NCBI GenBank assembly: GCA_037481615.1
Contig: JBBFLI010000014.1
DNA length: 64,000 nt
Direction: 5' to 3' (one strand)
DNA from: Desulfobacterales bacterium
GTDB lineage: Bacteria > Desulfobacterota > Desulfobacteria > Desulfobacterales > SpSt-501
Part shown: piece by piece, positions 9,622 to 49,721 of the stretch
Layout: each line of letters begins with the position of its first letter
How positions within the stretch are numbered: position 1 is the stretch's first letter
Made by a program: the position numbers and the translations under genes
The notes under the pieces: model-generated
What the model saw: only the letters and a program-made list of their open reading frames with translations
What the model was told of the DNA's origin: nothing
Databases searched by the model: none

Positions 9622-9622
9622 G

Positions 9623-12099: not shown

Positions 12100-12128
12100 T
12101 TGACAAGCCGGGAGCCCCTTTGATAGAG
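12100..12128 (+). promoter_or_regulatory. Possible aprBA promoter (good -35, weak -10)
   Basis: TTGACA at 12100-12105. The best -10 candidates are GATAGA/ATAGAG, 16-17 nt downstream. If used, it would give a leader of about 250 nt. Confidence 0.3.
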
Positions 12129-12385
12129 GGAAACTTCCTCAACGTTTGGATCCCATCTTGATTTCACGTGTTGCGTGTCAGATCGCTCTTTTCCGGGGCG
12201 GATTGCGCCCCGCCCCGCAGGTGCGCGAAGCGCACGAGACCTCGTTTCTTGTTTTATGGTTGTCCCGCTGCGGCGTGGTTTCAGATCCCCGACGAAGGGA
12301 GGTGCATGCGTCGAGAGCGACCGGCCAATGAACCCAGACCGCGTTGAAGCATCCGATTTCCCCATTCTCCCAAGGAGGTACCCAC

Positions 12386-12826: not shown

Positions 12827-12911
12827 AGTAAGGCGGGAACCGGCGCGCCACGGCGCGCGGCGAAGCGAAACGCAGCCAACCCCACCCGAAATTCCGTAAG
12901 GAGGAGATCAT

Positions 12912-14888: not shown

Positions 14889-14932
14889 GGATCTGCCGGT
14901 GAGTCCGACCCGCGGAAGCTGAGCCTCAAACA

Positions 14933-14970
14933 AAACCTCCAGGTGCCCGAGGGCACCTGGAGGTTTTTTT
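14933..14970 (+). terminator. Intrinsic terminator after aprA
   Basis: 13-bp GC-rich stem cctccaggtgccc/gggcacctggagg (14936-14963), followed by T7 (14964-14970). Confidence 0.8.
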
Positions 14971-14993
14971 CGCGGCCCCTGTGGCGGGGTCCC

Positions 14994-15044
14994 CCGGATG
15001 CGAAAGCGCACCGCCCGGCGAGGGCGGCGCTCTTTCGCATCCGG
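14994..15044 (+). other. Long imperfect hairpin in the qmoA leader
   Basis: ccggatgcgaaagcgc-a-ccgccc ggcga gggcgg-cgctctttcgcatccg. About 20 bp paired with one 2-nt bulge and no U-tract. Confidence 0.4.
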
Positions 15045-15120
15045 ACGAACCCCGGGCGGCCGGCGCCCGGTCGAACCCACACCCCCGGGGGGATCCCCCG
15101 GCCCTGGACGGAGGAACGGC

Positions 15121-16395: not shown

Positions 16396-16405
16396 GAGGT
16401 CGATC

Positions 16406-18739: not shown

Positions 18740-18772
18740 GGACGGGCCGAAGCGACAGAGGAGGTTCAGGAC

Positions 18773-19921
18773 ATGACCGCAAGACTCGTGGTGGAACCGG
18801 ACCTGGAGTTCATCCGGGAGGTGGGGATCCTCGGCGGCGAGGACCTCAAGAAATGTTACCAGTGCGCGACCTGTTCGGTGGTATGTCCGATTTCGCCCCA
18901 GAATCGGCCTTTTCCGCGCAAGGAGATGATCGCCGCCTCCTGGGGGCTGAAGGACAAGCTGGTGAAGAGCGCCGACCCCTGGCTGTGCCACAACTGTGGC
19001 GACTGCAACACCCGCTGCCCGCGGCAGGCCAAGCCGGGCGATGTGCTCGCCGCGATCCGCGCGCGGGCGGTCGAGGAGTACGCCGCACCCCGGGCGCTCG
19101 CCCGGGCCGTGAACACGCCGGCGATGCTCCCCGTGCTGCTTCTCGTGCCCGCGGTCTACATCGTCATCATGGGCTTCCTGATGGAGAAGATCTTCGGCAC
19201 GACCTTTCTCAACTTCAGCCCCGAAGGGACGATCGTCCATGCGAAGATGGTCTCCACCTGGCTCGTCGACGTGGTGATGCTCTCGGCGGCGGCCTTCACC
19301 GTCGCCGTCTTCGCGCAGGGCGTGAGGCGCTTCCTCGGCGACATCCACCAGAACGCGCTCGCCGAGGGCAAGACCGTTAAGCCGACGATCGACGCGGCGG
19401 GCTTCTTCCAGGCGCTCCTGCGCACGATCCCGGTGATCCTCCGGCACGCCAAGTTCAACGAGTGCACCGAGAACCGCGAGCGGGCGATCTCGCACATGCT
19501 GGTCCTGCTCGCCTTCATCGGGCTCTTCATCGTGACCTCGATCTTCTTCATCGCGATCTACGTCTTCCAGCAGCACGGCCCTTATTCGCAGCTCAACCCC
19601 GTCAAGTGGCTCGCCAACGTGAGCGGGGTTGCGCTCATCATCGGCAGCATCCTGCTCATCCGGCAGCGGCTCGCCAAGGCCGACCAGAAATCGGTCTACA
19701 AGGACTGGCTGCTGCTCGGCCTCGTCCTCGGCCTGGGCGTGACGGGCATGGGGGCGCAGCTTTCGCGGCTCGCGGGCTGGGCGGGGGTCTCCTACACCGT
19801 CTATTTCATCCACCTGATGCTCGTGTGGTTCACCTTCGCCTACCTCCCCTTTTCCAAGCTCGCCCACCTTGTCTACCGCACGGTCGCCATGACCTACGCG
19901 GAGTACGCGGAAAGGCGATGA
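18773..19921 (+). CDS. qmoC: Qmo subunit C (HdrC-like ferredoxin fused to a membrane cytochrome b domain)
   Basis: 382 aa. CYQCATCSVVCP and CHNCGDCNTRCP, followed by about six hydrophobic helices with conserved His. Confidence 0.9.
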   Translation: MTARLVVEPDLEFIREVGILGGEDLKKCYQCATCSVVCPISPQNRPFPRKEMIAASWGLKDKLVKSADPWLCHNCGDCNTRCPRQAKPGDVLAAIRARAVEEYAAPRALARAVNTPAMLPVLLLVPAVYIVIMGFLMEKIFGTTFLNFSPEGTIVHAKMVSTWLVDVVMLSAAAFTVAVFAQGVRRFLGDIHQNALAEGKTVKPTIDAAGFFQALLRTIPVILRHAKFNECTENRERAISHMLVLLAFIGLFIVTSIFFIAIYVFQQHGPYSQLNPVKWLANVSGVALIIGSILLIRQRLAKADQKSVYKDWLLLGLVLGLGVTGMGAQLSRLAGWAGVSYTVYFIHLMLVWFTFAYLPFSKLAHLVYRTVAMTYAEYAERR

Positions 19922-19954
19922 CACCGCGGCCCGCCGCGGTTTCGCCGAAAGAGG

Positions 19955-19991
19955 AAACCGGCATGCCGGGTCATCCGGCATGCCGGTTTTT
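19955..19991 (+). terminator. Intrinsic terminator after qmoC
   Basis: aaaccggcatgccgg (19955-19969) / ccggcatgccggttt (19975-19989), 5-nt loop, T5 tail. Confidence 0.7.
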
Positions 19992-20139
19992 GCCGCCCCG
20001 AACGGGCCGGCGAGCGGCGGAAAGGCTTGCCTTTTCCCGACGGGCGGGGTAGAAGACCCCTTCCCCCCGAACCAGCAGCCCCGTGCCCCGCGGCACGCGA
20101 TTCGGAAAACGACACCCCGAGAAAGGAGGAACGCACGGT

Positions 20140-21399
20140 ATGGCCGAAATCGGACATGGCGGAAAAGAGATCAAGGAGAGGATCCTCGAACCGGCGGAGG
20201 CCAAGAAGCGCATCCAGGGCCTGAAGGCGTACCCCATCCGCAGCCAGCTCGCCAACGAGGTGATCGGCATCGCCTACGGCTTTTTCAGCCCGCTCGAGGG
20301 CTTCATGGGCAAGGCCGACGTCGAGGCGGTGTGCAAGAAGATGCGCCTCAAGGACGGGAAGACCGTCTGGAGCATCCCCATCGTCTTCGACATGTCGAAC
20401 GAGGAGATCGCCCAGTACGGGGTGAAGCCCGGAGCCTCGATTCTGCTCACCTACACCGGAAACCCCATGGCGATCTTCGAGATCGAGGAGGTCTACGAGT
20501 ACGACAAGAAGTCGCTGGCGAAGGACGTCTACGGGACCGATGAGACCAAGCACCCCGGCTGCGCCCGCACTTACGCCTACAAGGACAAGTTCGTCGGCGG
20601 CAAGATCGCGCTCGTCAACCGGCCCAAGATCAACGAGCCCTTCACCCCCTACTTCCTGCCCCCCCTCCAGCTGCGCAAGATCTTCAAGGAGAAGGGCTGG
20701 AAGCGCATCGTCGCCCACCAGACGCGCAACGTCCCCCACACCGGCCACGAGTGGCTGATGAAGGGCGCCTGGTTCCAGACCTACGGCGAGCTGCCGATGG
20801 ACAAGCCCTACGTCGGGGTGCTCGTCAACGCGATCATCGGCGAGAAACGCAAGGGCGACTACATCGACGAGGCGATCATCCTCACCCAGGACGAGCTGCG
20901 CAAGTCGGGTTATTTCGGCGACCACAACCACTTGACCTCGCTCACCTTCTGGGACATGCGCTACGCCGGGCCGCGCGAGGCCGTCTTCCACGCCGCCCTG
21001 CGCACCAACCTCGGCCTCACCCACCACATGTTCGGCCGCGACCACGCCGGGGTGGGCACCTACTACGGGCCCTACGACGCCCATCGCCTGCTCGAGAGCC
21101 TGCAGGGGGAGATCAACATCGTCCCCGTCTACTCCGAGAACTGGCTCTACTGCCCGCACTGCGGCGAGATCACCTCCGAGAGCCTCTGCAATCACAAGAA
21201 GGAGTGGCAGAAGTTCTCGGGCACGCTCATCCGCAGCATCGTGCAGGACGGGGTCAAACCGCCGCGGCTGATTTTCCGGCCCGAGGTCTTCGACCTGGTG
21301 CTGGAATGCGCGGAGAAATACGGGTTCGGCTCGCCCTTCGTCGGGGAAGAGTATCTCGCCAAACGCACGCCGGTGTTCGTCATGCCGCCGCTGGCCTAG
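20140..21399 (+). CDS. sat: Sulfate adenylyltransferase (ATP sulfurylase)
   Basis: ATG 20140 after AAAGGAGGA. QTRNVPHTGHEWL (HxxH) and FGRDHAGVG motifs. Homo-oligomeric Sat type. Confidence 0.95.
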   Translation: MAEIGHGGKEIKERILEPAEAKKRIQGLKAYPIRSQLANEVIGIAYGFFSPLEGFMGKADVEAVCKKMRLKDGKTVWSIPIVFDMSNEEIAQYGVKPGASILLTYTGNPMAIFEIEEVYEYDKKSLAKDVYGTDETKHPGCARTYAYKDKFVGGKIALVNRPKINEPFTPYFLPPLQLRKIFKEKGWKRIVAHQTRNVPHTGHEWLMKGAWFQTYGELPMDKPYVGVLVNAIIGEKRKGDYIDEAIILTQDELRKSGYFGDHNHLTSLTFWDMRYAGPREAVFHAALRTNLGLTHHMFGRDHAGVGTYYGPYDAHRLLESLQGEINIVPVYSENWLYCPHCGEITSESLCNHKKEWQKFSGTLIRSIVQDGVKPPRLIFRPEVFDLVLECAEKYGFGSPFVGEEYLAKRTPVFVMPPLA

Positions 21400-23081: not shown

Positions 23082-23558
23082 ATGAAGCAGAAGTACGAAA
23101 TTTTGAAGGACGACGATTCCCGCCGGTTCATCATCCGCGAGTATGCCGAGCTCGACAAGGATGTCATGTCCCTGCTCTGCGAGGAGAGCTACGACCGCAA
23201 GACCCTCAAGGCCGCCCAGGCGGCCGGCCGCGACGCCCTGATCCGGGCCCTGCGCACGAAAAACCTCTTCCCGCCGTCCCTCTACGCCGCCCGGATCGCC
23301 GACCAGGTGGCGGAGATGCTCGGCAGCCGCGGGCCGGCGACCGCCGAGCTCGTCTTCGACGATCTCGAATTCCTCTCGCGCGCACCCGAAACCCTCGAGG
23401 CGGCGGTCGTCTACGAGGCCGAGGCCCCCGAGATCGACGAACTCCTCGACGCCGGCCTCGAGGAAGAGAAGTTCGACCAGGGCGAAGAGGTCGGAAAGAT
23501 CGACTCGTCGCTCAAGATCGAGGACGACGAGTTCGTCGACATCGACGACGAGAGTTGA
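23082..23558 (+). CDS. Highly acidic hypothetical protein
   Basis: 158 aa. MKQKYEILKDDDSRRFIIREYAELDKDVMSLL... The C-terminal third is almost entirely D/E (…EIDELLDAGLEEEKFDQGEE…EDDEFVDIDDES). Has its own promoter and terminator. Confidence 0.6.
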   Translation: MKQKYEILKDDDSRRFIIREYAELDKDVMSLLCEESYDRKTLKAAQAAGRDALIRALRTKNLFPPSLYAARIADQVAEMLGSRGPATAELVFDDLEFLSRAPETLEAAVVYEAEAPEIDELLDAGLEEEKFDQGEEVGKIDSSLKIEDDEFVDIDDES

Positions 23559-23565
23559 AACCCCC

Positions 23566-23596
23566 AAACGCCCGGCTTCGGCCGGGCGTTTCGTTT
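23566..23596 (+). terminator. Intrinsic terminator
   Basis: aaacgcccggc ttcg gccgggcgttt, followed by a CGTTT tail. Confidence 0.7.
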
Positions 23597-23743
23597 GGCA
23601 GCTCAGGGCGCCGCCCGGCAAGAGGCGCCCGCCCTTTCCGGAATGCAGCGGTCCTCTCGAAGAATAACCTCTTGGAGAGGCATCCACGATCCGGCCGCGG
23701 CCGGGACCGGGGCACGATCCACAAGCGCATCAAGGAGGTGCAA

Positions 23744-24688
23744 ATGGTCAACCAGGAAAAGGCGTTCTACGACAGGCTGGCACAAAAGGGCGTCACCCGG
23801 CGGGATTTCATGAAGTTCTGCACCTTTCTCACGGCGACGATGGGGCTTTCCTCCTCTTTCATCCCCAAGGTCGCCGAGGTCTTCGCGGCCCCGGCGAAGC
23901 GGCCGACGGTCGTCTGGCTGCATTTCGGGGAATGCACGGGCTGCTCGGAGGCGCTGTTGCGCACCATGTACCCCTGGATCGACGAGCTGGTTCTCGAGGT
24001 CCTGGACGTCGCCTACCACGAGACGATCATGGCCGCGGCCGGGCACCAGGCGGAAGAAATTCTCCACGAGACGGTCGAGAAGAACAAGGGCCAGTTCCTC
24101 TGCGTGGTCGAGGGGGCGATCGCGACCAAATACAACGGCGGCTGGGGCAAGGTGGGCGGCAAGAGCTTCCTGCAGATCGCCAAGGAGGTCTGCCCCAAGG
24201 CGGCCGGGGTCATCTGCATCGGCAGCTGCTCGGCCTTCGGCAACATCCCGGCGGCGAAACCCAACCCCGGCGGCTACAAGGGGGTCGGCGAGGTCCTCGG
24301 CATCAAGACCGTGAACATCGCCGGCTGCCCGCCCAACCCGATCAACTTCGTCGGCACGGTCGTCAACTACCTGCTCCTCGGCAAGCTCCCCGCGCTGGAC
24401 GACCTGGGCCGGCCGCTCTTCGCCTACGGCCAGACGATCCACGACAACTGCGCGCGGCGGGGGCACTTCGAGAACGGCGAGTTCGTCGAGGAATTCGGCT
24501 CCAAGGAGGCCGCCCTCGGCTACTGCCTCTACAAGGTCGGCTGCCGCGGCCCCGAGACCTACAACAACTGCGGCATCGTGAAGTTCAACAGCGGCTGCAG
24601 CTGGCCGGTCCAGGCCGGGCACCCCTGCATCGGCTGCAGCCAGCCGGAATTCTGGGACAAGTTCACGCCTTTCTACCAGGAACTCTAA
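23744..24688 (+). CDS. Periplasmic [NiFe] hydrogenase small subunit (Tat signal)
   Basis: ATG 23744 after AAGGAGG. TRRDFMKF twin-arginine motif. WLHFGECTGCSEALL, GSCSAFG, GCPPNP and HPCIGCSQPEFWD cluster ligands. Confidence 0.95.
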   Translation: MVNQEKAFYDRLAQKGVTRRDFMKFCTFLTATMGLSSSFIPKVAEVFAAPAKRPTVVWLHFGECTGCSEALLRTMYPWIDELVLEVLDVAYHETIMAAAGHQAEEILHETVEKNKGQFLCVVEGAIATKYNGGWGKVGGKSFLQIAKEVCPKAAGVICIGSCSAFGNIPAAKPNPGGYKGVGEVLGIKTVNIAGCPPNPINFVGTVVNYLLLGKLPALDDLGRPLFAYGQTIHDNCARRGHFENGEFVEEFGSKEAALGYCLYKVGCRGPETYNNCGIVKFNSGCSWPVQAGHPCIGCSQPEFWDKFTPFYQEL

Positions 24689-24730: not shown

Positions 24731-26386
24731 ATGGCAGAACGCATCATCGTCGATCCGATCACCCGTATCGAAGGACACCTGCGCATCGAGGTCGAAGTGT
24801 CCGGCGGCAAGGTGGTGAACGCCTGGAGCTCGGGGCAGATGTTCCGCGGGATTGAAGTCATCCTGCAGGGCCGGGATCCCCGCGACGCCCATCATTTCGT
24901 CCAGCGCTCCTGCGGGGTTTGCACCTACGTGCATGCCATCGCCTCAGTGCGCGCGGTGGATGACGCCGTCAAGGTGAAGATCCCCAAGAACGCGCGCCTC
25001 ATCCGCAACCTGCTCCTGGGCGCTCAGTACCAGCACGACCACATCGTCCATTTCTATCACCTGCACGCGCTCGATTGGGTGGATGTGGTGAGCGCACTCA
25101 AGGCCGACCCGGCCAAGACCGCCGCGCTCGCCGACAACGTGAGCAACGCCCCCTGGGGCGGGACGACGTACTTCAAGAACGTCCAGCAGCGGCTCAAGAC
25201 CTTCGTCGAGAGCGGCCAGCTCGGCCCCTTCGCCAACGCCTACTGGGGCCACCCGGCCTACAAGCTGCCGCCGGAGGCGAACCTCATGGCGGCGGCGCAC
25301 TACATCGAGGCCCTGCGCCTGCAGGCCAAAGCCGCGCGCATGCACGCCATCTTCGGCGGCAAGAACCCGCACCCGCAGTCGCTCGTGGTGGGCGGCGTCA
25401 CCTGCGCGGCGGATCTCACGGCCGAGCGCATCGCCGAGTTCCTCTACATCACCAAGGAAACCCACGATTTCGTGAAGAACGTCTACATCCCCGATCTGCT
25501 GGCCGTGGCCTCCTTCTACAAGGACTGGGGCGGGATCGGCCGCACGACGAACTTCCTCGCCTGGGGCGATTTCCCGCTGAGCGAAAAGGAGCCGGAGAGC
25601 CTCTTCATGCCGCGCGGCGTGATCTTCAAGCGCAACCTGGAAAAGCCGGTCATGGCCGACCCCGGCAAGGTGACCGAGCACGTCGCACGCTCCTGGTACG
25701 AAGGCACCCAGGCCCGGCATCCCTACCAGGGCGAGACCAAGCCGTTCCAGGGCGACCCCAAGTACGACACGGACTCGAAAGACGGCCGGTACTCTTGGCT
25801 CAAGGCGCCGCGCTACGAGGGCGAGCCCTGCGAGGTCGGCCCCCTGTCCCACGTGCTGGTGGGTTACGCCTACGGCCAGAAGGAGTGGAAGCAGCCGGTC
25901 GATCACGTGCTCAAGACCCTGAACATCCCCGCCGAGGCCCTCTTCTCGACGCTCGGCCGGACCGCGGCCCGCGGCATCGAAACGCTCGTCATCGGCGAGG
26001 CGATGCAGGGCTGGGTGATGGAGCTCGTCGAGAACATCAAGAAGGGGGACACCCAGACCTACGAGCCCTACGAGATGCCCGACAAGGCCCAGGGCGTCGG
26101 CCTGAACGACGTCCCCCGCGGCGCCCTCGGCCACTGGATCGTCATCGAGAACAAGAAGATCAAGAACTACCAGTATGTCGTCCCCTCCACCTGGAATCTC
26201 GCCCCCCGGTGCGCCGCCGGCAAGATGAGCCCGGTGGAGGAGGCGCTGATCGGCACCCCGATCGCCGACCCCAAGCGCCCGCTCGAGATCCTGCGCACGG
26301 TCCATTCCTACGACCCCTGCATCGCCTGCGCCGTGCACGTGATCGATCCGGACTCGAACGAAGTCTACAAGGTCCGCGCCGCCTGA
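24731..26386 (+). CDS. Periplasmic [NiFe] hydrogenase large subunit
   Basis: 551 aa. DPITRIEGH, RSCGVCTYVH (N-terminal Ni ligands), and C-terminal DPCIACAVH followed by a 15-aa cleavable extension. Cys, not Sec, at the Ni site. Confidence 0.95.
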   Translation: MAERIIVDPITRIEGHLRIEVEVSGGKVVNAWSSGQMFRGIEVILQGRDPRDAHHFVQRSCGVCTYVHAIASVRAVDDAVKVKIPKNARLIRNLLLGAQYQHDHIVHFYHLHALDWVDVVSALKADPAKTAALADNVSNAPWGGTTYFKNVQQRLKTFVESGQLGPFANAYWGHPAYKLPPEANLMAAAHYIEALRLQAKAARMHAIFGGKNPHPQSLVVGGVTCAADLTAERIAEFLYITKETHDFVKNVYIPDLLAVASFYKDWGGIGRTTNFLAWGDFPLSEKEPESLFMPRGVIFKRNLEKPVMADPGKVTEHVARSWYEGTQARHPYQGETKPFQGDPKYDTDSKDGRYSWLKAPRYEGEPCEVGPLSHVLVGYAYGQKEWKQPVDHVLKTLNIPAEALFSTLGRTAARGIETLVIGEAMQGWVMELVENIKKGDTQTYEPYEMPDKAQGVGLNDVPRGALGHWIVIENKKIKNYQYVVPSTWNLAPRCAAGKMSPVEEALIGTPIADPKRPLEILRTVHSYDPCIACAVHVIDPDSNEVYKVRAA

Positions 26387-30668: not shown

Positions 30669-31685
<1,017 letters not shown>

Positions 31686-41904: not shown

Positions 41905-43134
41905 TCAGCGGGAGGCGAGCAGGGGCAGGATGCGGTCGAGGACGGCCTCGGCGACCTCACGCTTGGCAAGCAGCGGCAGGGTTTCCACCCCGCCGCGGGG
42001 GTCGAGGATCGCCACCCGATTCGTCTCCGCCTCGAAGCCGCTTCCCGGGGCACTGACGTCGTTGGCGACGATCAGGTCGAGCCCCTTTTTCTCGAGCTTT
42101 TGGCGCGCGTTCTGCAGGAGTTCCTCGGTCTCGGCGGCGAAGCCCACGACGACGGCCGGCCCCTGCCCCCCGCGCCGCCGCTCGCCGACGAGCGACAGGA
42201 TGTCCTCGGTGCGCACGAGCTCGAGGCGGGCGGACTCGGCCTCCTTCTTGATCTTCTGCTCCGCCGCGACCCGCGGCCGGTAGTCGGCGACCGCCGCGGC
42301 CATGAGCAGGACGTCGGCGCGGGCGCAGGCCTCGAGCACCGCCTCCTTCATCTGCGCCGCGGTGCCGACGGCGACGGCCTCGACCCCGTAGGGCACCTCC
42401 AGGGCGAGGGGCCCGTGGATCAGGGTCACGTGCGCCCCGCGGTCGCGGGCCGCGCGGGCGAGGGCCAGGCCCATCCGGCCGCTGCTGCGGTTGCCGATGA
42501 AGCGCACGGGGTCGATCGGCTCGCGCGTCCCCCCCGCGGTCACGACCACCCTTTTGCCGGCGAGCGGCCCGCTGCGGCCGAGCACCCAGCAGGCCGCCTC
42601 CAGGAGGGTCCCGGGTTCGGCCATGCGGCCCTCGCCCACGCCCCCCGAGGCCAGCCGCCCCTTTTCCGGCCCCACGACGAAGGCGCCGCGGGAAACGAGG
42701 GTGGCGAGGTTCGCGCGCGTCGCCGGGTGATCCCACATGCCCGACTCCATGGCCGGGGCGAGAAGAAGCGGGCCGCGGCAGGCGAGCGCGGTGGTGACGA
42801 GGAGGTTGTCGGCCAGCCCGCAGGCGAGCCGGGCGAGGGTGTTGGCGGTCGCCGGGGCGACGATCATGAGGGCGGCGCGCTTTCCGAGCGCGACGTGGCC
42901 GATCTCGCGGTCCTGGAGGAGCGAGAACATCTCGGTCGCCACCGGCCGCTGGGTGAGGGCCTGGAAGGTGAGCGGCCGGACGAACTCGGCGGCGGCGGGG
43001 GTCATCACCACCTCGACCTCGGCTCCAGCCTGGACGAGGCGGCTCGCCAGATCGGCCGCCTTGTAGGCGGCGATCCCGCCGCTCACGCCGAGGACGAGGC
43101 AGCGTTTGTCCAGCACCGGGATGGTCGTCTCCAT
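41905..43134 (-). CDS. coaBC: Bifunctional phosphopantothenoylcysteine decarboxylase / phosphopantothenate-cysteine ligase
   Basis: 409 aa. LVLGVSGGIAAYKAADL flavoprotein N-terminus and CoaB C-terminal half (ITAGGTREPIDPVRFIGNRSSG). Confidence 0.95.
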   Translation of the reverse strand: METTIPVLDKRCLVLGVSGGIAAYKAADLASRLVQAGAEVEVVMTPAAAEFVRPLTFQALTQRPVATEMFSLLQDREIGHVALGKRAALMIVAPATANTLARLACGLADNLLVTTALACRGPLLLAPAMESGMWDHPATRANLATLVSRGAFVVGPEKGRLASGGVGEGRMAEPGTLLEAACWVLGRSGPLAGKRVVVTAGGTREPIDPVRFIGNRSSGRMGLALARAARDRGAHVTLIHGPLALEVPYGVEAVAVGTAAQMKEAVLEACARADVLLMAAAVADYRPRVAAEQKIKKEAESARLELVRTEDILSLVGERRRGGQGPAVVVGFAAETEELLQNARQKLEKKGLDLIVANDVSAPGSGFEAETNRVAILDPRGGVETLPLLAKREVAEAVLDRILPLLASR

Positions 43135-43159: not shown

Positions 43160-43927
43160 TCAGCGGTTCATCTCGTAGACCATCCGCAGCCCTTCGAGGG
43201 TGAGCATCGGGTCGACCTTCTCGATCACGCGCGCCTGCTCGGCGAGCAGCGCGGCCATGCCGCCGGTGGCGATGACCCGGGCCTCGCCCCCCAACTCGGC
43301 GCGCAGCCGGCCGACCAGCCCGTCGATCAGGCCGACATAGCCCAGGACCAGGCCCGACTGCATGGCGTGCACGGTGTTGCGGCCGATGGCGGCCGGCGGG
43401 GCCGTGAGCTCGATCCGGGGCAGCTTGGCCGTACGGGCGAAGAGCGCCTCGGCCGCGATCCCGAGCCCCGGCGCGATGGCCCCGCCGAGGTAGTGCCCCT
43501 CGCGGGAGAGGGCGTCGAAGGTGGTCGCCGTGCCGAAGTCGACCACGATACAGGGGCAGCCGTAGAGGCTCTTGGCGGCCACGGCGTTCAGGATGCGGTC
43601 GGCGCCGAGCTCCGCGGGGTAGTCGATGCGGATCTCGACCCCGGTGCGCAGGCGGTGGGAGACGACGAGGGGCTCGAGGCCGAGGTAGCGGCGGCTGAGT
43701 TCGACGAAGACCGGAGTGACCGGCGGGACGACGCTCGAGAGGGCGACCCCGGTGAGCTGCGACCAGGAGAGGCCGCGGAATTCGAAGAAGCTGCGCAGCA
43801 GCATGGCGTACTCGTCGGCCAGCCGCGCGCGGTCGGTCGCGGCCCGCCAGTGGGCGAGCCAGCCGGAGCCCTCCCCGTGAACGCCGAAAGAGGTGTTCGT
43901 GTTGTTCACGTTGACGGCGAGCAGCAT
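43160..43927 (-). CDS. coaX: Type III pantothenate kinase
   Basis: 255 aa. MLLAVNVNNTNTSFGV..., IVVDFGTATTFD and IATGGMA are ASKHA motifs of CoaX. Confidence 0.9.
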   Translation of the reverse strand: MLLAVNVNNTNTSFGVHGEGSGWLAHWRAATDRARLADEYAMLLRSFFEFRGLSWSQLTGVALSSVVPPVTPVFVELSRRYLGLEPLVVSHRLRTGVEIRIDYPAELGADRILNAVAAKSLYGCPCIVVDFGTATTFDALSREGHYLGGAIAPGLGIAAEALFARTAKLPRIELTAPPAAIGRNTVHAMQSGLVLGYVGLIDGLVGRLRAELGGEARVIATGGMAALLAEQARVIEKVDPMLTLEGLRMVYEMNR

Positions 43928-43971: not shown

Positions 43972-44709
43972 TCAGGCGGCGGGGCCGTGCCGGTGGGGGC
44001 GGTCCCCCAGCCGGTGGGCGTGCACGTGCCGGTGGAGCGCCTCCCCGTCGACCCCGCAGATGCGCCCCGCCTCGAGGGTGAGCAGCCGGTCGCACAGCGC
44101 GGTCAGCAGGTCGATGTCGTGGGAGATGATCGCCCGGGGGATGGCGAGCCCCTCGAGCACCTCGACCAGCCGCAGGCGCGTGCGGGAGTCGAGACCGTTT
44201 TCGGGCTCGTCGAGAAGCAGCGCCTCGGGCTCCATCGCGAGCACCGCGGCGAGCGAAACCAGCCGCTTTTCGCCGCCGGAGAGTTTGAAGCCGATCCGGT
44301 CCTCGAAGCCCTCGAGCCCCAGGGCGGCGAGCGTTCGCCGGGCTGCGGCCAGGGCCTCCTGCCGCGATCGGCCGAGGTTGAGGGGGCCGAAGGCGACGTC
44401 TTCGATCACCGTGGGGCAGAAGAGCTGGTCCTCGGGGTCCTGGAAGACGAGCCCGATGCGCCGGCGGACCTCGAGAAAGTCGGCCTCCGCGCGTCGGGGT
44501 TTCCCGAAGACGCGGATCTCGCCCGCCTGGGGCCGCAGCAGCCCCATGATCAGAAGAAAAAGGGTCGTCTTGCCGCTGCCGTTCGGCGCAAGGATCCCGA
44601 CGCGCTCGCCCGGCCCGAGGGCGAAGTCGAGGCCTTCCAGGATCGGCTTCGCGCCCGGGTAGCCGAAGCGGACGCCCTGCAGGGCGATGATCGGCGCGGA
44701 GGCGTCCAT
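43972..44709 (-). CDS. nikO: ECF transporter ATPase (CbiO/NikO)
   Basis: ATG 44709. Walker A APNGSGKTT, signature LSGGEKR, Walker B LLLDEP. Confidence 0.85.
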   Translation of the reverse strand: MDASAPIIALQGVRFGYPGAKPILEGLDFALGPGERVGILAPNGSGKTTLFLLIMGLLRPQAGEIRVFGKPRRAEADFLEVRRRIGLVFQDPEDQLFCPTVIEDVAFGPLNLGRSRQEALAAARRTLAALGLEGFEDRIGFKLSGGEKRLVSLAAVLAMEPEALLLDEPENGLDSRTRLRLVEVLEGLAIPRAIISHDIDLLTALCDRLLTLEAGRICGVDGEALHRHVHAHRLGDRPHRHGPAA

Positions 44710-44726
44710 CGGTTTTTTCGGCCCTT

Positions 44727-45482
44727 TCAGCGCGCGAACTCGAGCGCCGCCGAGGCGGCGACGGCGGCGGCGACGGCGGCGGCGAAGGCGAGCGAGCCCC
44801 TGCCCAGATGGAACTCGTGCAGGCTGAAGAACACCCCCTGGAAGCCGCGGCAGACCATCGCCCGACGGACGCGCTCGGCACGGTCCACGGCGCGCACGAG
44901 GAGCATGCCGAGCAGCCAGGCGAAGGTGCGGTAGGTGTGCAGGTCGGTCCGCGGGCGGAAACCCCGCAGCGCCGCGGCCCGCCGCAGTCTGCGGAATTCC
45001 TGCTCGAGGAGGGCGAGATAACGCCAGGTGAGCAACAAAAGCTGCACGAGTTTTCCCGGGGCCCCCAGCCGGTGAAGGGCGTGTCCCGCGGTCGGCAGGG
45101 AAAGGGGCGCGACGAGCGCGAGCAGCGCGAGCACGAGGGCGTTCGATTTGAGCGTGATCGCAAACGCCAGGAGAACCCCCTCGCGGCTCGCCGCAAGGGG
45201 GCCGAGCCGCAGCAGGGCCTCCCCCGGCAGGCTGAAGGGGAGAAAGATCCACAAGAGCGCGATGAAGCCGTTCACGGCGAAGAGGCGGCGCAGCACCGAC
45301 CCGGCCGAAAGGCGGAAGAAGACCGCCAGCGCCAGCGCAAAGACGAGTGCGGCGGCGATGCTCGCGGGCTTCTGCCAAACGGCGGTTGCGCTGCTGTAGG
45401 CCAGGGCGGCGACCAGACGCACCCGCGGGTCGATTCGCGCCGCGAGCGCTCTCCCCCCGGCGGCGAGGGGTTCGGGGAGCAA
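44727..45482 (-). CDS. nikQ: ECF transporter transmembrane T component (CbiQ/NikQ)
   Basis: 251 aa, multi-TM. ...RRAAALRGF...RAERVRRAMVCRGF is the conserved CbiQ Arg-rich coupling-helix region. Confidence 0.8.
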   Translation of the reverse strand: MLPEPLAAGGRALAARIDPRVRLVAALAYSSATAVWQKPASIAAALVFALALAVFFRLSAGSVLRRLFAVNGFIALLWIFLPFSLPGEALLRLGPLAASREGVLLAFAITLKSNALVLALLALVAPLSLPTAGHALHRLGAPGKLVQLLLLTWRYLALLEQEFRRLRRAAALRGFRPRTDLHTYRTFAWLLGMLLVRAVDRAERVRRAMVCRGFQGVFFSLHEFHLGRGSLAFAAAVAAAVAASAALEFAR

Positions 45483-45501
45483 GGCAGCGGGTCTTTTCGT
45501 T

Positions 45502-45690
45502 TCAGGCGCCGAAGACGATGCGGTGCTCGACCAGGTGCATCCGTTTCAGGGGCGCCTTCACGGTCTTCTGCTGGCCGAAGATGTTGACGAGGAGGAAACT
45601 GCCGTCCTCCTGGGGCTCCACCCGGTCGACCGACTCGAGGAGAAGCTCCTCCCGGCCGTCCCGTTCCACGTAGGCGTGCGCTTCACACAT
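45502..45690 (-). CDS. cooT: CooT-family nickel-binding protein
   Basis: 62 aa. MCEAHAYVERDGREELLLESVDRVEPQEDGSFLLVNIFGQQKTV...HRIVF has the N-terminal Met-Cys-Glu-Ala and beta-rich pattern of CooT. Confidence 0.75.
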   Translation of the reverse strand: MCEAHAYVERDGREELLLESVDRVEPQEDGSFLLVNIFGQQKTVKAPLKRMHLVEHRIVFGA

Positions 45691-46105
45691 CGGGCAGCAC
45701 CTCCTTCACTTTCCGGTGCACGAGCGTCTGGACCAGGTGCGGCAGCGGCTCGGCGGAGACCCCCACCAGGCTGACCGCCTCCTGGGTGAGGGGGAGGAAG
45801 ATCTTGGGGGCGGGGCTCCCCATGATCGCCTCGGCCATCCTCGGGGTGACCTCCCCCAGCATGGCGTGCGCCCAGCCGATCGAAATGGCCCCCACGATCA
45901 CATCCACGCGGGGGGCGGTGCGGACGATCGCGTTTTCGCCGCTTGCGGCGCGGTTCGCCCCGGCCTTGAGCATCTGGGCGGCGGCGATGGCATTGGTGCC
46001 GAGCGCGATCAGCTCGACCGTCTCGCCGTAGGCTTCCTTGAGCGCGCGCAGAACGGCCGCCCCGATCCCCCCGCCTTGGCCGTCGATGACGCAGATGCGT
46101 TTCAA
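45683..46105 (-). CDS. DUF3842-like protein
   Basis: 140 aa. MKRICVIDGQGGGIGAAVLRALKEAYGETVELIALGTNAIAAAQMLKAGANRAASGENAIV... recalled as the DUF3842 family signature (IDGQGGGIG). 8-nt overlap with cooT and ATGA overlap with the upstream gene. Confidence 0.6.
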   Translation of the reverse strand: MKRICVIDGQGGGIGAAVLRALKEAYGETVELIALGTNAIAAAQMLKAGANRAASGENAIVRTAPRVDVIVGAISIGWAHAMLGEVTPRMAEAIMGSPAPKIFLPLTQEAVSLVGVSAEPLPHLVQTLVHRKVKEVLPDV

Positions 46106-46692
46106 GCCGGTCCGCCCCCCCGACGCCTGCTCTTGAGCCAGACGGCGAAGCCCGCCAGGCCCACGATCCAGCCCAAGCCCCCCACGACATCGCTCAGCCG
46201 CGCGCGCGGCGCGTGAAGCTCGGCCATCATTTTCACCACGGGGGCGAGCTTCCTGTCCAGCGCTTTTTCGAGGGCCTGCTCGAGCTCGGCGGGGGAGAGG
46301 GAGGCCGCGGCCGCCGCCGGCCCCGAGGCGGGGGCGGGCGAGGGGGCGGCAGCCGCCGGCCCGCCGCCCAGCTCCGCGGCCGAAAGGGGCCAGTCCGCGC
46401 GGTGGCCCATGCCGGCCTCGAGCACGATCGTGAGATCCTCCCGGAGAGGGATCGGGAAGGAAAACTCGCCCCGGTCGTTCGTCTTGCCCTGGAGCAACTC
46501 GCGGCCGGAGCGGTCCAGCACCCGGATCAGACCCTCTTTCACGAGGGTCCCGTCGGGGTACTTGGCCTCGGTGTGGACGGTTTCCCCCTCGACCCAGGCA
46601 AAGAGGTTCACCCGGTGGGCGGAGGCGTCTCCGGGCGGAAGGAGGGGGACGAGAGAGAGGGTCAGGGTGAAGAGAAGCGTTGCGGTGTTCAT
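46102..46692 (-). CDS. nikL: NikL-like accessory component (signal anchor, periplasmic beta-domain, C-terminal TM)
   Basis: ATG 46692 (ATGA overlap with the nikM stop). MNTATLLFTLTLSLVPLL...AHRVNLFAWVEGETVH...DRGEFSFPIP..., Ala/Pro linker, terminal TM GLGWIVGLAGFAVWL. Confidence 0.5.
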   Translation of the reverse strand: MNTATLLFTLTLSLVPLLPPGDASAHRVNLFAWVEGETVHTEAKYPDGTLVKEGLIRVLDRSGRELLQGKTNDRGEFSFPIPLREDLTIVLEAGMGHRADWPLSAAELGGGPAAAAPSPAPASGPAAAAASLSPAELEQALEKALDRKLAPVVKMMAELHAPRARLSDVVGGLGWIVGLAGFAVWLKSRRRGGGPA

Positions 46693-47306
46693 CGCACCTC
46701 CACGGGCGGGCGGCCGGGAAGCAGCCCGGGCTGGACCCGGCGCAGGAACCCCACGCACAGGGCCGTCACGACCCCCTCGATCCCCATCACCGGCAGGTGG
46801 GCGAGGACCACGGCGAAAGCCACGTTCAAAAAATGCTCCCCGCTCAAGGCGAGCGCAAGCCCCACGACGACCCCGCCGAGCAGCACGGAAAGAAAGCCGC
46901 AGGCGAAGGCGGCGGCGAGCGCGGCCGCCTTCGGTCCCTGCAGGAAGCGGGAAAAGAGGCCGTAGCCGGTCACCGCCGGCAGGGCCATGATCAGCGTGTT
47001 CACCCCCAGGGTGGTCAGCCCCCCGAACTGGAAGAAGACCGCCTGCAGGACGAGCCCCACGAGGATCGCGGGGAAGGCCGTCCAGCCGAGGAGCAGACCG
47101 ACCAGGCCGTTCAGGACGAGATGAACGCTCGTCGGCCCGAGCGGCACGTGGACGAGCGAGGCGACGAAGAAGGCCCCGGCGAGCATGGCCGCCCGGGGGA
47201 TCTGCTCGGGCTCGAGTTTCTTCAGGCCGATGCCTGTGCCGGCGGCCGCGAGTGCGGCCCCGGCGAGCAGGACGGGGCCGGAGAGCACCCCTTCGGAGAT
47301 GTGCAT
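46689..47306 (-). CDS. nikM: ECF transporter substrate-capture component CbiM/NikM
   Basis: 205 aa beginning MHISEGVLS (the N-terminal Met-His required for metal ligation in the CbiM/NikM family). Multi-TM. Confidence 0.85.
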   Translation of the reverse strand: MHISEGVLSGPVLLAGAALAAAGTGIGLKKLEPEQIPRAAMLAGAFFVASLVHVPLGPTSVHLVLNGLVGLLLGWTAFPAILVGLVLQAVFFQFGGLTTLGVNTLIMALPAVTGYGLFSRFLQGPKAAALAAAFACGFLSVLLGGVVVGLALALSGEHFLNVAFAVVLAHLPVMGIEGVVTALCVGFLRRVQPGLLPGRPPVEVR

Positions 47307-47348
47307 GAGGCGGATCCTATCCGATTCCGGGTCAAAGCGAAAGCCGCC

Positions 47349-48713
47349 CTAAAAGCCGAACTCCGCCCGGACGGTCGTGGCGAAGACGGGGTCGTTCTCG
47401 GAGTCGCCGCCGGGGTTCCAGACATACTGGAAGTCGGGCGTGAAGGCCAGATTTTCGCCGACCGCGATCCGGTAGTAGACCTCGAGATGCACCTCGGGAT
47501 CGTCCTTGCGGTAGCGTCCGTCCGGGAAGAGCGCGGCCAGGCCCAGGCCGATCTCGTCCTCGTCCCGCCGGGGGAGGAGCCCCTTCAGGTTCACCCCGCC
47601 GGAGATCTCCTGCTTCACCACGTAGACCTCCTCGTTGTTCCAGCCGAGGCGGCCGAAGAGCCCGATCGTCTCGGTCAGCTGCTGGTCGGCCGAGATCCCC
47701 AGCCCCCAGCCCGCGGCCTTGCGACCGGCGATGAAGTTGCGCTCGGCATCGAGCTTCGCATGATCGTAGCCCGCCCGCCAGGCGTAGAAGCGGTAATTGC
47801 CCCCGCGCCCGCCGAAGTGGGGCGAGAAGGAGACCTGCCCCCCGAGAAAGGGCGTGCTGAAGACGTTGTCGTACTTGCTCTTCGCCGTCTCCTCGAGCGG
47901 GCTTCCCCCCACCAGCGGCCGCGAGCTCGAGGCCCCCACCAGGTGGAAGGCGAGAGATTCCCCGGGCTGAACCCTCACCCCGAAGAGCGGGGTGTACTCG
48001 TTCTCGCCGTCGAGCACGGAGTTGTTGACGAAAGGCTTGCCGATGAACTGCTTGCCCTCGTCGTTCGCATAGGCGTTGTCGTCCAGAAAGGAAAGGGGCT
48101 CGCCCTTGCCGGCGGTGAGCGAAAGGCGCTCGTTCCAAAAATGGTGCGTGTAGTGCGCCTCGAGCAGCGCAAGCGCCGTCTCGTCCCCGCCGTCGGTGTT
48201 GTCGTCGGCGATCGTGTTGAGATTGGCGAGCAGCACCTCGGCCGGCTTCACCCGGCCGCCGCCCGTCCGGTCCGCCCCGCTTCCCGCCCCGGCGTGAATG
48301 CGCAGGAAAAACTCCCCCTCCTCCAAAACCGGCACGGCGGGCGTCCAGGACAGCTCGAGATCCGCCGCAAACCCCGCCCCGCTCGGGCTGTCCGCCCGCA
48401 GGCCGTCCAGCTCGTCGGCGCCTCCGTCCTGGTAATACAGCACCGCCCCCCCGTGAATGGAAAGTGTGCCGAAGCGCTCCTCGAGCGCCTCGCCGATCTT
48501 GTCCTCGAGCGCCTTCTCGTTTTTCAGCTCCCGGCGTTTGGCGAGCTGCTCCTGCTCCTCGAGCTTTTGCTCGAGCTCCGCGATCCGCTCTTTCAGCGCC
48601 TGGATCTCCTTGAGCACGGCCGCGTTGTCGGCAAGCGCGCGGCCGCCCGGAACGGCCCCGATCAGCAACAACGCCAGCCCGAGCCCCAGCCACCGTTTCC
48701 TGTCGCACCTCAT
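47349..48713 (-). CDS. Outer-membrane beta-barrel porin with N-terminal coiled coil (OprB/DUF3373-like)
   Basis: ATG 48713 (MRCDRKRWLGLGLALLLIGAVPGGRALA). Coiled coil LKEIQALKERIAELEQKLEEQEQLAKRRELK. Alternating beta-strand pattern. C-terminal ...TVRAEFGF (terminal Phe). Confidence 0.7.
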   Translation of the reverse strand: MRCDRKRWLGLGLALLLIGAVPGGRALADNAAVLKEIQALKERIAELEQKLEEQEQLAKRRELKNEKALEDKIGEALEERFGTLSIHGGAVLYYQDGGADELDGLRADSPSGAGFAADLELSWTPAVPVLEEGEFFLRIHAGAGSGADRTGGGRVKPAEVLLANLNTIADDNTDGGDETALALLEAHYTHHFWNERLSLTAGKGEPLSFLDDNAYANDEGKQFIGKPFVNNSVLDGENEYTPLFGVRVQPGESLAFHLVGASSSRPLVGGSPLEETAKSKYDNVFSTPFLGGQVSFSPHFGGRGGNYRFYAWRAGYDHAKLDAERNFIAGRKAAGWGLGISADQQLTETIGLFGRLGWNNEEVYVVKQEISGGVNLKGLLPRRDEDEIGLGLAALFPDGRYRKDDPEVHLEVYYRIAVGENLAFTPDFQYVWNPGGDSENDPVFATTVRAEFGF

Positions 48714-48772
48714 TTCGCACCTACCTCGAATGTCGTGAGTTGCAGGCGGGGAAAGCCCCCGCCGCCGGACGG

Positions 48773-49543
48773 TCATTTTTCTTTCCAGTCGTGGAAATAG
48801 ACCCAAATCACGCCGCCGATCTCGACCGCCTTGTCCTTGCCGTCCTTTTTCAGCTTGAAATCGGCCGGCGCCAGGGCGGCGAACCCCCACCAGCCCGGCC
48901 GGGGCGCGGCATAGGTGAAGACGCCGTTGCGGTCGGCCTTGACGACCTGGGTGACCTGGTACTCGGTCGGCGGCTCGGCCTTACCCTCGCGGTTGTAGAA
49001 CTCGATTTCGACCTCGGCGAAGGGCGCGGGCTTGCCGTTCTGCTTCACGATCCCCTGGAAGACGTTTCCGGCGTAGAGGCCGAAGGGCCGCGTGAGGGGG
49101 ACGATCTCGATCGGGTGGCCGACCTCGCGGTCCCAGCCCTCCTCCTCGCCGAAGGCCGGGACGACGACCTTGGTGTAGTGCGCGATGAAGGAATCCTCGG
49201 CCGGCTCCCAGTAGGGCTCGGGCTCGAAGTGGAAGATGTAGACCCCGGGGCGCTTAAACGTGTAAGAGGCGCTCCAGGCCGCCTTGCCCATGACCTGCGC
49301 CGGCTTGAGGCCGGCGGAGAGATCCTCCTTCGCCGTGCCGGCGAGCACCCCGAAGACTTTCGGCTTCGCCATGTCCATCCCCACCATTTCCATGGGGTGC
49401 GAGAAGGAGAGCAGGAGTTCGATCGCCTTGGGGTCGGTCTTCGAAATCACGGGCTTGGCGGGGATGAGCATCCCGAAATGGGCCCAGGCGGGCGCGCCGG
49501 AGATCAGGAGCGCAAGACCCAGGGAAACGACACGTTTTTTCAT
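48773..49543 (-). CDS. nikK: Periplasmic DUF4198/NikK-like metal-binding protein
   Basis: ATG 49543 after [35 protein letters not shown]... (signal peptide then the His-Phe-Gly start of the mature protein). Ig-like beta-sandwich region [19 protein letters not shown]...ADRNGVFTY. Confidence 0.7.
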
Positions 49544-49572
49544 GTGCGGCCTCCTTGTCTTCTGCCGTGGCG

Positions 49573-49611
49573 AAAAAAAAAGGCCGCGCGTCCGCGGCGC
49601 CTTCGGGCGCC
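49573..49611 (-). terminator. Leader terminator with overlapping alternative hairpin upstream of nikK
   Basis: Minus strand: GGCGCC-CGAA-GGCGCC (49611-49596) shares GCC with the terminator stem GCCGCG-GACG-CGCGGC (49598-49583). That stem is followed by C + U9 (49581-49573), then 16 nt to the SD. Confidence 0.5.
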
Positions 49612-49692
49612 CCTTTCGCACGGCCTCGACACGGCCAGCAAAAAGCAGCTGAGATTGGGGGAATTGCGGGCTCCGGCCCGCTTTGACGGGCT

Positions 49693-49721
49693 TTGTTAAT
49701 CCAAGGGATCCGGCCTGTCAA
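49693..49721 (-). promoter_or_regulatory. Candidate sigma70 promoter of the nik operon
   Basis: Minus strand TTGACA (49721-49716), 17-nt spacer, TAACAA (49698-49693). Predicted leader of about 140 nt. Confidence 0.5.

Follow-up and report, generated by a model that had tools for sequence, protein, structure and literature searches.

We describe a nickel-uptake locus in a 64,000-nt stretch of DNA from a Desulfobacterales bacterium (assembly GCA_037481615.1, contig JBBFLI010000014.1), referred to here at its full length as the window. Eight consecutive co-directional open reading frames (ORFs) on its minus strand, from 49543 to 43972, encode the five components of a NikKMLQO-type energy-coupling factor (ECF) importer together with an outer-membrane porin, a DUF3842 protein and the small protein CooT. 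The locus is probably a nickel-acquisition operon of sulfate-reducing Desulfobacterota in which the porin and the DUF3842-CooT pair are embedded, expression is controlled by attenuation in a 5' leader and the operon belongs to a regulon. What stands out beyond an earlier note on this DNA is that DUF3842 is paired with CooT and that an undescribed attenuator leader ties together porins, TonB systems, two importer families and CooT.

In the mechanism that we propose, a sigma-70-type promoter would start transcription, and RNA polymerase would then have to pass a conserved leader with a strong intrinsic terminator, reading through when nickel is scarce and terminating when it is sufficient. The OprB-family porin would most likely provide the route of Ni(II) across the outer membrane. 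NikM would capture the substrate, with NikQ as T component, NikO as ATPase and NikK and NikL as periplasm-facing accessories, and the translationally coupled DUF3842-cooT pair would most likely receive or buffer the imported nickel in the cytoplasm. In this lineage, the DUF3842-cooT module would have moved inside the transporter operon. We infer the direction of regulation, the porin substrate, the hand-off role of DUF3842-CooT and the nickel-sensing factor; nickel is taken as the probable metal from the presence of NikK, NikL and CooT and of a NikA equivalog under the same leader motif.

A conserved terminator-bearing leader precedes nikK

All elements of the leader lie on the minus strand. 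The promoter consists of a -35 hexamer, TTGACA (49716..49721), and, after a 17-nt spacer, a -10-like hexamer, TAACAA (49693..49698). The earlier note had named this promoter, and both hexamers are present as described; a consensus scan did not call the site, because the second hexamer ends in A. The same note had missed an attenuator-like leader, including a GC-rich hairpin and a T9 run (49625-49573). Alignment, a consensus fold and a covariance model built from six orthologous nik leaders (R1; 82 bits for the window copy) delimit the conserved leader RNA motif at 49571..49685. It contains a P1 hairpin (GCGGGC-CGGA-GCCCGC, 49681-49666), a bipartite terminator hairpin (49625-49582) whose inner hairpin reads GGCGCC-CGAA-GGCGCC, and a U9 run (T9 in DNA, 49581-49573) that lies 30 nt before the nikK start codon. 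Promoter, GC-rich hairpin, U-run and first start codon thus follow one another in the layout of an intrinsic-terminator attenuator and, with a strong terminator ahead of nikK, expression would be set by attenuation.

The leader is conserved in sequence and in pairing. Leaders of five orthologous loci (L004, L008, L009, L014 and L015) share the promoter, P1 (GCRGGC-YGRA-GCCYGC), a variable linker and the bipartite terminator, with compensatory changes. Across the six orthologous nikK leaders CTTGAC is invariant, as is the TA, and only the TA, of the -10 hexamer. When 34 motif copies were aligned, 94% of cells were paired and 17 of 21 pairs had changed on both sides; none of 500 shuffles reached the observed values, and slid controls gave 35-49% pairing. 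Canonical copies have a near-invariant 5' arm, GCCACGAAGG, which pairs with (C/U)(C/U)UCGUGGC and is followed by a U-run; the sequence of their inner hairpin is variable, and its loop is often of the NGAA type. Among the listed motif copies, GAA occurs within 55 of 113 predicted hairpin loops. P1-like hairpins are found in about a quarter of the listed metagenomic copies (30/112, versus 5.8 in shuffles), and 54 of 110 such copies, versus 3.7 in shuffles, have TTGACA in the 120 nt that precede the motif, with a peak 80-110 nt upstream. This position of TTGACA places the motif in 5' leaders.

We considered whether the element was already known or could be something other than a leader. At the gathering score, neither the window nor any of seven loci that carry canonical copies matched an Rfam 15 family, NiCo and cobalamin riboswitches included, and at E values up to 10 the leader returned just chance-level matches to small RNA models from Pseudomonas and Xanthomonas. 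A literature search found no paper describing the leader motif or a nickel-uptake riboswitch. Absent from Rfam 15 and from the searched literature, the motif is an undescribed RNA leader. The gene upstream of the nik leader encodes a SPOR-domain protein and is divergent, so the hairpin terminates nothing but the nik leader. A generic element resembling a repetitive extragenic palindrome, or a terminator of the neighboring gene, was rejected in view of this divergent gene, the promoter 5' of the motif and the functionally coherent genes downstream. A DNA operator formed by the inverted repeat was rejected in view of the spacing of 14-44 nt, the covarying inner hairpin and the trailing U-run. 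Membership in a NikR regulon, to which nik operons of delta-proteobacteria typically belong, was rejected as well: the NikR operator (GTGTTAC-N13/14-GTAACAC, up to three mismatches) has no match near the operon and a single one in the window, inside a gene at 18985, and no NikR family was found in our context scan, which covered ~48 ORFs of the 64-kb window.

The leader motif appears to mark a nickel-acquisition regulon

In at least 20 loci in which the DUF3842-cooT pair lies outside a nik operon, searches with R1 placed the motif no more than ~250 nt ahead of DUF3842; they also placed it 5' of nikK in L016, L024 and L033. The motif further precedes TonB-dependent receptors, ExbB-ExbD-TonB systems, a CbiM-PDGLE gene and FmdE-like genes. 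A metagenome scan for GCCACGAAGG-N14-44-CGTGGCYTTTT yielded at least 120 contigs. Among the matches listed, 105 distinct copies had at least 400 nt downstream, and we tallied the first gene behind each of them. The largest class was nikK, nikM/cbiM or nikL (37 copies), followed by TonB-dependent receptors, ExbBD-TonB or a repeat protein preceding ExbBD (14), DUF3842 or cooT (10), Peripla_BP_2 or FecCD (8), SBP_bac_5 binding proteins (6), outer-membrane barrels of OprB-like or Phenol_MetA_deg-like type (6), FmdE-like proteins (3), S-adenosylmethionine-methyltransferase-like proteins (3), small His-rich proteins (2) and others, namely an ATP-binding cassette (ABC) ATPase and a multihaem-like protein (2); the first gene was unrecognised in 14 copies. 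The SBP_bac_5 protein of L143 scored 700.6 bits on TIGR02294 (nickel_nikA, cut-off 393), which puts a second, unrelated nickel-importer family under the same motif.

The motif appears to define a nickel-acquisition regulon, comprising ECF Nik importers, NikA-type systems, TonB systems, porins and CooT, that is controlled by transcription termination. As the same leader sits on other nickel-uptake systems and on free-standing DUF3842-cooT pairs in relatives, the window operon would thus be one member of this regulon. Elsewhere the same leader precedes genes for outer-membrane entry, periplasmic capture, import and a cytoplasmic CooT module, which supports the earlier proposal that all these functions belong together.

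Further copies of the motif were recorded in L009 (5817-5925), L014 (6193-6304), L037 (9791-9904) and L081 (9837-9956 and 15827-15941, minus strand), and in metagenome loci L088-L207. Carriers that can be cultivated include Desulfosarcina variabilis (L081) and D. alkanivorans (L043), as well as Desulfatibacillum/Desulfococcus strains. Several less familiar genes follow it. FmdE-domain proteins with C-terminal zinc-ribbon-like Cys motifs stand directly behind the motif in L054 (7777-9900), L065 (6318-7500), L128, L135, L165 and L200, and in L054 the FmdE-domain genes precede DUF3842. The first ORF after the motif in L109 and L193 encodes a small His-rich protein (HTEHAHDHHHSS), and L030 has under its motif a gene (1688-2957) for an outer-membrane protein whose N-terminus is rich in His (NGDHQHEHQGAD); these proteins may bind nickel in the periplasm or at the outer membrane. 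In L036 (14142, minus strand), L043 (14330, minus strand), L106, L121 and L148, the motif is followed directly, ahead of exbB-exbD-tonB, by genes for repeat proteins 550-590 aa long that have many D-x-D-x-D-G-type motifs and match no Pfam family above cut-off. Finally, L084, from a genome labelled as a Promethearchaeota archaeon, carries a bacterial-type motif and a DUF3842-cooT pair closely similar to those of Desulfobacterales, and its label is probably a binning error.

Gene content and junctions of the operon

The window has ~70% G+C, and gene starts were picked from ribosome-binding sites together with agreement with homologues. The eight co-directional minus-strand ORFs reported earlier were borne out by the ORF calls, and the family assignments held in profile hidden Markov model searches, where all eight products passed curated cut-offs. 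The first gene, nikK (48773..49543), has an ATG start with AAGGAGG ahead of it and encodes the periplasmic DUF4198 component (PF10670, E = 1.2e-58); we take DUF4198 to be NikK/CbiK. It is followed by the gene for the OprB-family outer-membrane porin (47349..48713; PF04966, E = 3.2e-31, 109.5 bits versus a cut-off of 22.9), by nikM for the CbiM-type S component (46689..47306; PF01891, E = 5.7e-58; NF004905, 269 bits) and by nikL (46102..46692), which scored 175.6 bits against a cut-off of 100 on NF058648, 'NikL family nickel/cobalt ECF transporter subunit'. Next come the DUF3842 gene (45683..46105; TTG start, 140 aa; PF12953, E = 1.4e-51, 174.7 bits versus 28.5) and cooT (45502..45690; 62 aa; PF10133, E = 6.9e-22, 78 bits versus 27). 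The cluster ends with nikQ for the CbiQ-type T component (44727..45482; TTG start; PF02361, E = 2.8e-31; TIGR02454, 134.8 bits versus 111.8) and nikO for the ECF ATPase (43972..44709; PF00005, ABC_tran, E = 8.6e-27), whose best NCBIfam matches are ECF and CbiO ATPase models. The earlier reading would have fallen had profiles failed to place NikK or NikL; as DUF4198 and NF058648 place both above cut-off, it stands on this point.

Most junctions read as had been claimed. The start and stop codons of nikM and nikL overlap as ATGA (46689-46692), and DUF3842 and cooT overlap by 8 nt (45683-45690; ATGTGTGA). The nikL/DUF3842 overlap (46102-46105), given earlier as a second ATGA, reads TTGA. Of the range of 11-59 nt given for the remaining gaps, the upper value stood and the lower did not, the actual gaps being 59, 42, 19 and 17 nt. 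Two genes on the same strand, coaX (43160-43927) and coaBC (41905-43134), begin 44 nt past nikO, with a short hairpin and no U-run in between; coaX-coaBC also follow nikO in L008, whereas L004 lacks this order. As no convincing terminator separates coaX and coaBC from nikO, the transcription unit may extend to include both genes.

The importer matches the NikKMLQO type in most respects. The names NikK and NikL and their role as additional periplasmic components come from comparative genomics in delta-proteobacteria (PMC545781), the subtype having been defined by Rodionov and co-workers (PMC545781, PMC2667541), and the nikKMLQO operon of Brucella abortus is described as a nickel transport system (PMC2868824). 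Like these importers, the window operon has the M, Q and O core with NikK and NikL and without NikN, a Met-His start of the M component and the K-M-L-Q-O order; it differs in having the porin gene between K and M and DUF3842-cooT between L and Q, and in having a terminator-bearing RNA leader instead of a NikR box. NikM begins MHISEG, is 205 aa long and lacks a NikN/PDGLE extension, and a profile search found no match to PDGLE or CbiN among the eight products. NikK has a signal peptide with predicted cleavage at AWA|HFGM, giving a mature N-terminal His (49480-49471). NikL likewise has a signal peptide, with predicted cleavage at ASA|HRVN and an N-terminal His (46620-46611), followed by a low-complexity Ala/Pro linker and a C-terminal transmembrane anchor; Pfam HI_1622_C is recorded for NikL on identical contigs, and an exact look-up of the window NikL protein found no record. 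The predicted N-terminal His of mature NikK and NikL parallels the Met-His start of NikM, and HFGM(L/V)IPS is kept in the NikK orthologues of L024, L108 and L179, with HFQTLIPS in L030.

The porin has a signal peptide and a ~55-residue N-terminal coiled coil ahead of the OprB barrel, no detected SLH domain and, in its C-terminal part, a weak match to NF033921, 'iron uptake porin'. OprB-type porins of cyanobacteria have been implicated in inorganic ion and iron uptake. The window protein resembles OprB porins in its PF04966 barrel, in the coiled coil preceding it and in the NF033921 match, and differs in being encoded inside an ECF nickel-transporter operon, a context that suggests a cation rather than a carbohydrate as its substrate. 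The outer-membrane step is thereby genetically coupled to an inner-membrane nickel importer, and in place of an energised TonB-dependent receptor the operon encodes a passive-type porin.

The same arrangement recurs in relatives

A DUF3842 search brought up thousands of closely similar proteins, and we compared window proteins by tblastn with 80 sampled genome loci fetched with a DUF3842 profile; taxon labels follow the deposited metagenome-assembled genomes (MAGs). On Pfam-labelled contigs, a 5-Mb Desulfobacteraceae MAG has the window's gene order, DUF4198, OprB, CbiM, NikL, DUF3842, CooT, CbiQ and ABC, and SPOR-gatC upstream is also syntenic. The embedded eight-gene order was found in L004, L008, L009, L012-L015 and L098, with L010 and L013 partial, and a porin orthologue lies between nikK and nikM in L004, L008, L009, L012, L014, L015 and L098. 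Upstream SPOR-gatC synteny extends to L004, L009 and L015, with gatC alone in L014. One of these loci, L008, comes from a MAG labelled Desulfatibacillum and has a DUF3842 protein 93% identical to that of the window; another, L098, is a metagenome contig reached independently through the leader motif and shows the order K-porin-M-L-DUF3842. The earlier note knew of no described system with this composition. Its recurrence in several Desulfobacterales MAGs and metagenome contigs makes it a lineage variant of NikKMLQO, not a one-off.

Other orders also occur. The pair stands immediately 5' of nikK in L016, L024, L033, L075, L166 and L194, upstream of nikK with an outer-membrane gene in between in L030, and ahead of nikM-nikL in L155, and K-M-L-Q-O without insertions is present on metagenome contigs L114 and L178. 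About 60 of the 80 sampled loci have no nik gene within 10 kb of the pair. Because pair and nik genes are ordered differently among contigs, the window represents one of several permutations of the same building blocks. Sequence of the window organism was present only in hot-spring and sediment DNA metagenomes. In L006, a ribonucleotide reductase gene near the nik locus (8168-11620) carries an intein with a LAGLIDADG domain, and in the sister MAG L004 only a short ribonucleotide reductase fragment was called (16213-17079).

DUF3842 and cooT form a portable module

The pairing of DUF3842 with CooT is tight: cooT lies directly 3' of DUF3842 in 78 of the 80 sampled loci, and the 8-nt ORF overlap is kept in 55 of those 78. 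Every one of the 78 CooT proteins starts MCEA (MCEAH in the window) and keeps a C-terminal His. Two cluster representatives, P0134 (202 aa) and P0143 (207 aa), are in-frame DUF3842-CooT fusion ORFs; in P0143 a Leu precedes the CooT Cys, and the ORF is either a real fusion or hides a TTG start. DUF3842-cooT is a portable two-gene module that occurs within nik operons, just upstream of nikK or elsewhere. A second type of pair, with DUF3842 61-67% identical to that of the window and no motif, is found in the contexts parA-parB-NYN-[pair]-ispH/ubiA fusion and asd-rsmD-coaD-[pair] (L042, L049, L053, L055, L058 and others; L057, L062, L067, L070 and others).

The window CooT aligns with CooT of Carboxydothermus hydrogenoformans (6FAN, 63 aa) at E = 9e-15, including Cys2 and the C-terminal His. 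Nickel binding by CooT depends on Cys2 (PMC6006190), and the window protein would likewise be a Cys2 nickel binder. CooT proteins of Rhodospirillum rubrum and C. hydrogenoformans, known from maturation of carbon monoxide dehydrogenase (CODH), share PF10133, a similar length, Cys2 and the C-terminal His with the window protein. In contrast to theirs, the window cooT is not beside cooS, cooC or cooJ; it is paired with DUF3842, in some genomes fused to it, and lies in or beside nickel-uptake operons behind a shared leader. No CODH or CooC was found among the scanned window ORFs, and neither recurs among neighbors of the pair in the 80 genomes.

DUF3842 itself is a family of 987 clusters at 50% identity that is unusually conserved within this clade, relatives of the window protein being 76-93% identical to it. 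A first AlphaFold run with a shallow alignment gave a predicted local distance difference test score (pLDDT) of 59, at which a fold search is meaningless, and we used a model from a diverse alignment (pLDDT 97). It shows a three-layer alpha/beta, Rossmann/flavodoxin-like fold with a glycine-rich loop, DGQGGGIG, after strand 1. A Foldseek search of this model against the PDB found no neighbor above a template modeling (TM) score of 0.5; the neighbors at or below 0.5 were generic, pointed to no function and included a UbiX-like flavoprotein, universal stress proteins, the FtsZ N-domain and methylglyoxal synthase. The DUF3842 profile found no match among PDB sequences, an alignment of 51 sequences contained no conserved Cys or His, and a literature search found no relevant paper on DUF3842. 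We infer that DUF3842 may be a cytoplasmic nucleotide- or cofactor-binding partner of CooT, not a metal binder.

Points against the proposed operon and regulon

Several observations weigh against the reading of the locus as an attenuated nickel operon within a nickel regulon. The window copy of the motif has a diverged version, GCCGUGCGAAAGG, of the canonical GCCACGAAGG arm, and the window leader has a folding z-score of just -1.7, in GC-rich sequence. Many motif copies are near-perfect long hairpins, expected to terminate without a ligand, which counts against a simple metal-stabilised hairpin and does not thereby identify the factor. Of the operon, three small metatranscriptomes of the same study contained just one contig, 157 nt long and lying in nikL. 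About one-third of the sampled pairs lie in housekeeping neighborhoods (parA-parB or rsmD-coaD) without the leader motif, so the pair is not always tied to uptake genes. As DUF3842 has neither conserved Cys or His nor a structural relative, its role is a guess. On the side of the metal, NCBIfam (NF004905) calls the S component 'cobalt transporter CbiM', and the genes for Peripla_BP_2, FecCD and TonB-dependent receptors that follow the motif may act on cobalt, cobalamin or a metallophore.

Alternative sensors, metals and functions

With attenuation retained as the probable mode of control, two kinds of sensor come into question, and both have precedents: the NiCo riboswitch is an attenuator with an RNA sensor, and TRAP, HutP and ANTAR are attenuators with protein sensors. 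The window leader resembles all of these in being a 5' leader that uses an intrinsic terminator as expression platform and in having short repeated elements in or near hairpin loops, one of which can form a small competing hairpin. Its conserved GCCACGAAGG with NGAA loops is unlike any of them. It differs from the NiCo riboswitch, a metal-sensing RNA that acts as an ON switch for efflux genes, in controlling uptake rather than efflux genes and in lacking an Rfam match.

The leader could, first, be a riboswitch, in which the RNA binds Ni(II) or Co(II), for example via the guanines of GAAG-type loops, and the metal favors the terminator. A conserved, covarying structure in 5' untranslated regions of metal-uptake genes and the recurrence of NGAA loops in both P1 and the inner hairpin fit this idea, which we regard as possible but on balance unlikely. 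It has to contend with the absence of a multi-helix junction or of conserved unpaired nucleotides of the kind found in aptamers, with the lack of P1 in most copies and the concentration of conservation in a base-paired arm, with the many near-perfect hairpins and with the negative Rfam result, NiCo included.

The second idea assigns sensing to the DUF3842-CooT pair itself, as an autoregulated nickel sensor in which nickel-loaded or apo CooT, a small beta-rich dimer, binds repeated GAAG elements and switches termination in the manner of TRAP or HutP; we consider this improbable. Directly behind the motif, the pair or cooT by itself ranks among the most frequent genes, and the motif has two or three similar GAAG-containing loops or arms, as expected for the target of a multimeric RNA-binding protein. 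The conserved arm, GCCACGAAGGC, could itself fold as a GCC-ACGAA-GGC mini-hairpin that resembles P1 and would compete with the terminator. PF10133 was presumably once annotated as a predicted RNA-binding protein. Yet we found no evidence or paper for RNA binding by any CooT, and the motif is missing from many DUF3842-cooT pairs. An ordinary alternative is moreover that a metallochaperone and its importer are regulated together, as exemplified by COG0523 proteins in Zur regulons. The broader proposition, that the GCCACGAAGG-type leader is a nickel-responsive attenuator of a whole regulon in Desulfobacterota and relatives, with CooT as a metal-dependent RNA-binding regulator and not only a CODH chaperone, seems to us similarly improbable. 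Between the two kinds of sensor we lean towards a protein that recognises the emerging GCCACGAAGG arm and NGAA loops rather than direct metal sensing by the RNA, because the RNA is simple and conserved mainly in one paired arm and the NGAA loops, P1 is found in just a quarter or so of the listed copies, and many near-perfect hairpins should terminate constitutively.

Another reading is that the transporter and regulon serve cobalt, or both metals, rather than nickel. It draws on the CbiM name in NCBIfam and on genes found behind the motif, among them CbiM-type genes with PDGLE/CbiN-like parts and genes for BtuF/FecB-like binding proteins with FecCD permeases. NikK and NikL, by contrast, mark the nickel subtype (PMC545781, PMC2667541), a NikA equivalog (700 bits) and CooT stand under the same motif, and the Rfam search found no cobalamin riboswitch. 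A cobalt system is therefore quite unlikely, and we keep the designation of a nickel-acquisition operon.

The window also contains a potential nickel client. A sulfate-reduction block on the plus strand (12332-21399), with aprB, aprA, three qmoABC-like genes and sat, identifies the organism as a sulfate reducer and lies directly upstream of a hydrogenase/hyp cluster. That cluster includes the small subunit of a [NiFe] hydrogenase with a twin-arginine translocation (TAT) signal (23555-24688), its large subunit (24731-26386) and then an endopeptidase, hypC, hypF, hypD and hypE, ending at 31685. Just upstream of aprBA, two paralogous CxxCxxCC-domain (PF03692) genes, at 9593-10483 (plus strand) and 11247-12398 (minus strand), point towards each other. 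The interval from hypE to nikO holds unrelated genes on both strands, among them apbE, a radical-SAM MiaB-like gene and genes for a polyprenyl synthase and a tRNA. The earlier note had described a hydrogenase with hypCFDE, no hypA or hypB and no CODH in the window, and the scan of ~48 ORFs of the 64-kb window agrees, finding none of the HypA, HypB and CODH families among them.

From this neighborhood, the note had suggested that the unit might be the nickel-delivery arm for the hydrogenase. In its specific form, with the embedded DUF3842-CooT delivering nickel to the nearby periplasmic enzyme in place of HypA/HypB, the suggestion draws on the TAT-signal hydrogenase with its endopeptidase and hypC, hypF, hypD and hypE, and on the missing HypA/HypB and CODH. 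Against it, a distance of at least 12 kb, with unrelated genes in both orientations, separates the two loci, and neither hydrogenase nor hyp genes are recurrent within ~6 kb of the pair in the 80 genomes or in Pfam-labelled contexts; nor do CODH genes belong to any conserved neighborhood of the pair or the operon in relatives. Further, hypA and hypB may sit elsewhere in the genome, and CooC, CooT and CooJ of R. rubrum are reported to have no part in maturing its CO-induced hydrogenase (PMC6006190). Proximity of 12-20 kb in the window is all that links the two loci, and as a conserved feature the connection is unsupported, though also not refuted; we hold dedicated delivery to this hydrogenase to be very doubtful.

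It is still less likely that the eight genes do not form one transcription unit, the porin and/or DUF3842-cooT having promoters of their own and the hairpin being no more than a generic terminator or repeat. The porin gene is indeed set off from its neighbors by 59 and 42 nt, and the pair, as a mobile module, has a leader of its own at other loci. Against this, a consensus scan finds no promoter-like site inside the cluster, overlaps of 4, 4 and 8 nt join nikM, nikL, DUF3842 and cooT, no second motif copy lies inside the operon, and the coherent functions behind the motif together with the upstream promoter speak against a generic repeat.

Implications

Nickel supply limits hydrogenase, CODH/acetyl-CoA synthase and related enzymes in anaerobes. 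Three steps in that supply are poorly understood, namely how nickel crosses the outer membrane, which cytoplasmic acceptor receives it after import and what controls uptake in the absence of NikR sites, and this locus bears on all of them. It genetically links a porin, an ECF importer and a CooT-family protein. For the uncharacterised DUF3842 family it suggests CooT as a partner and nickel uptake as a context, both of which can be tested. The leader motif could be used to annotate nickel-related genes of uncultured Desulfobacterota and, if its sensor is found, would represent either a new class of metal riboswitch or the target of a new metal-dependent RNA-binding regulator.

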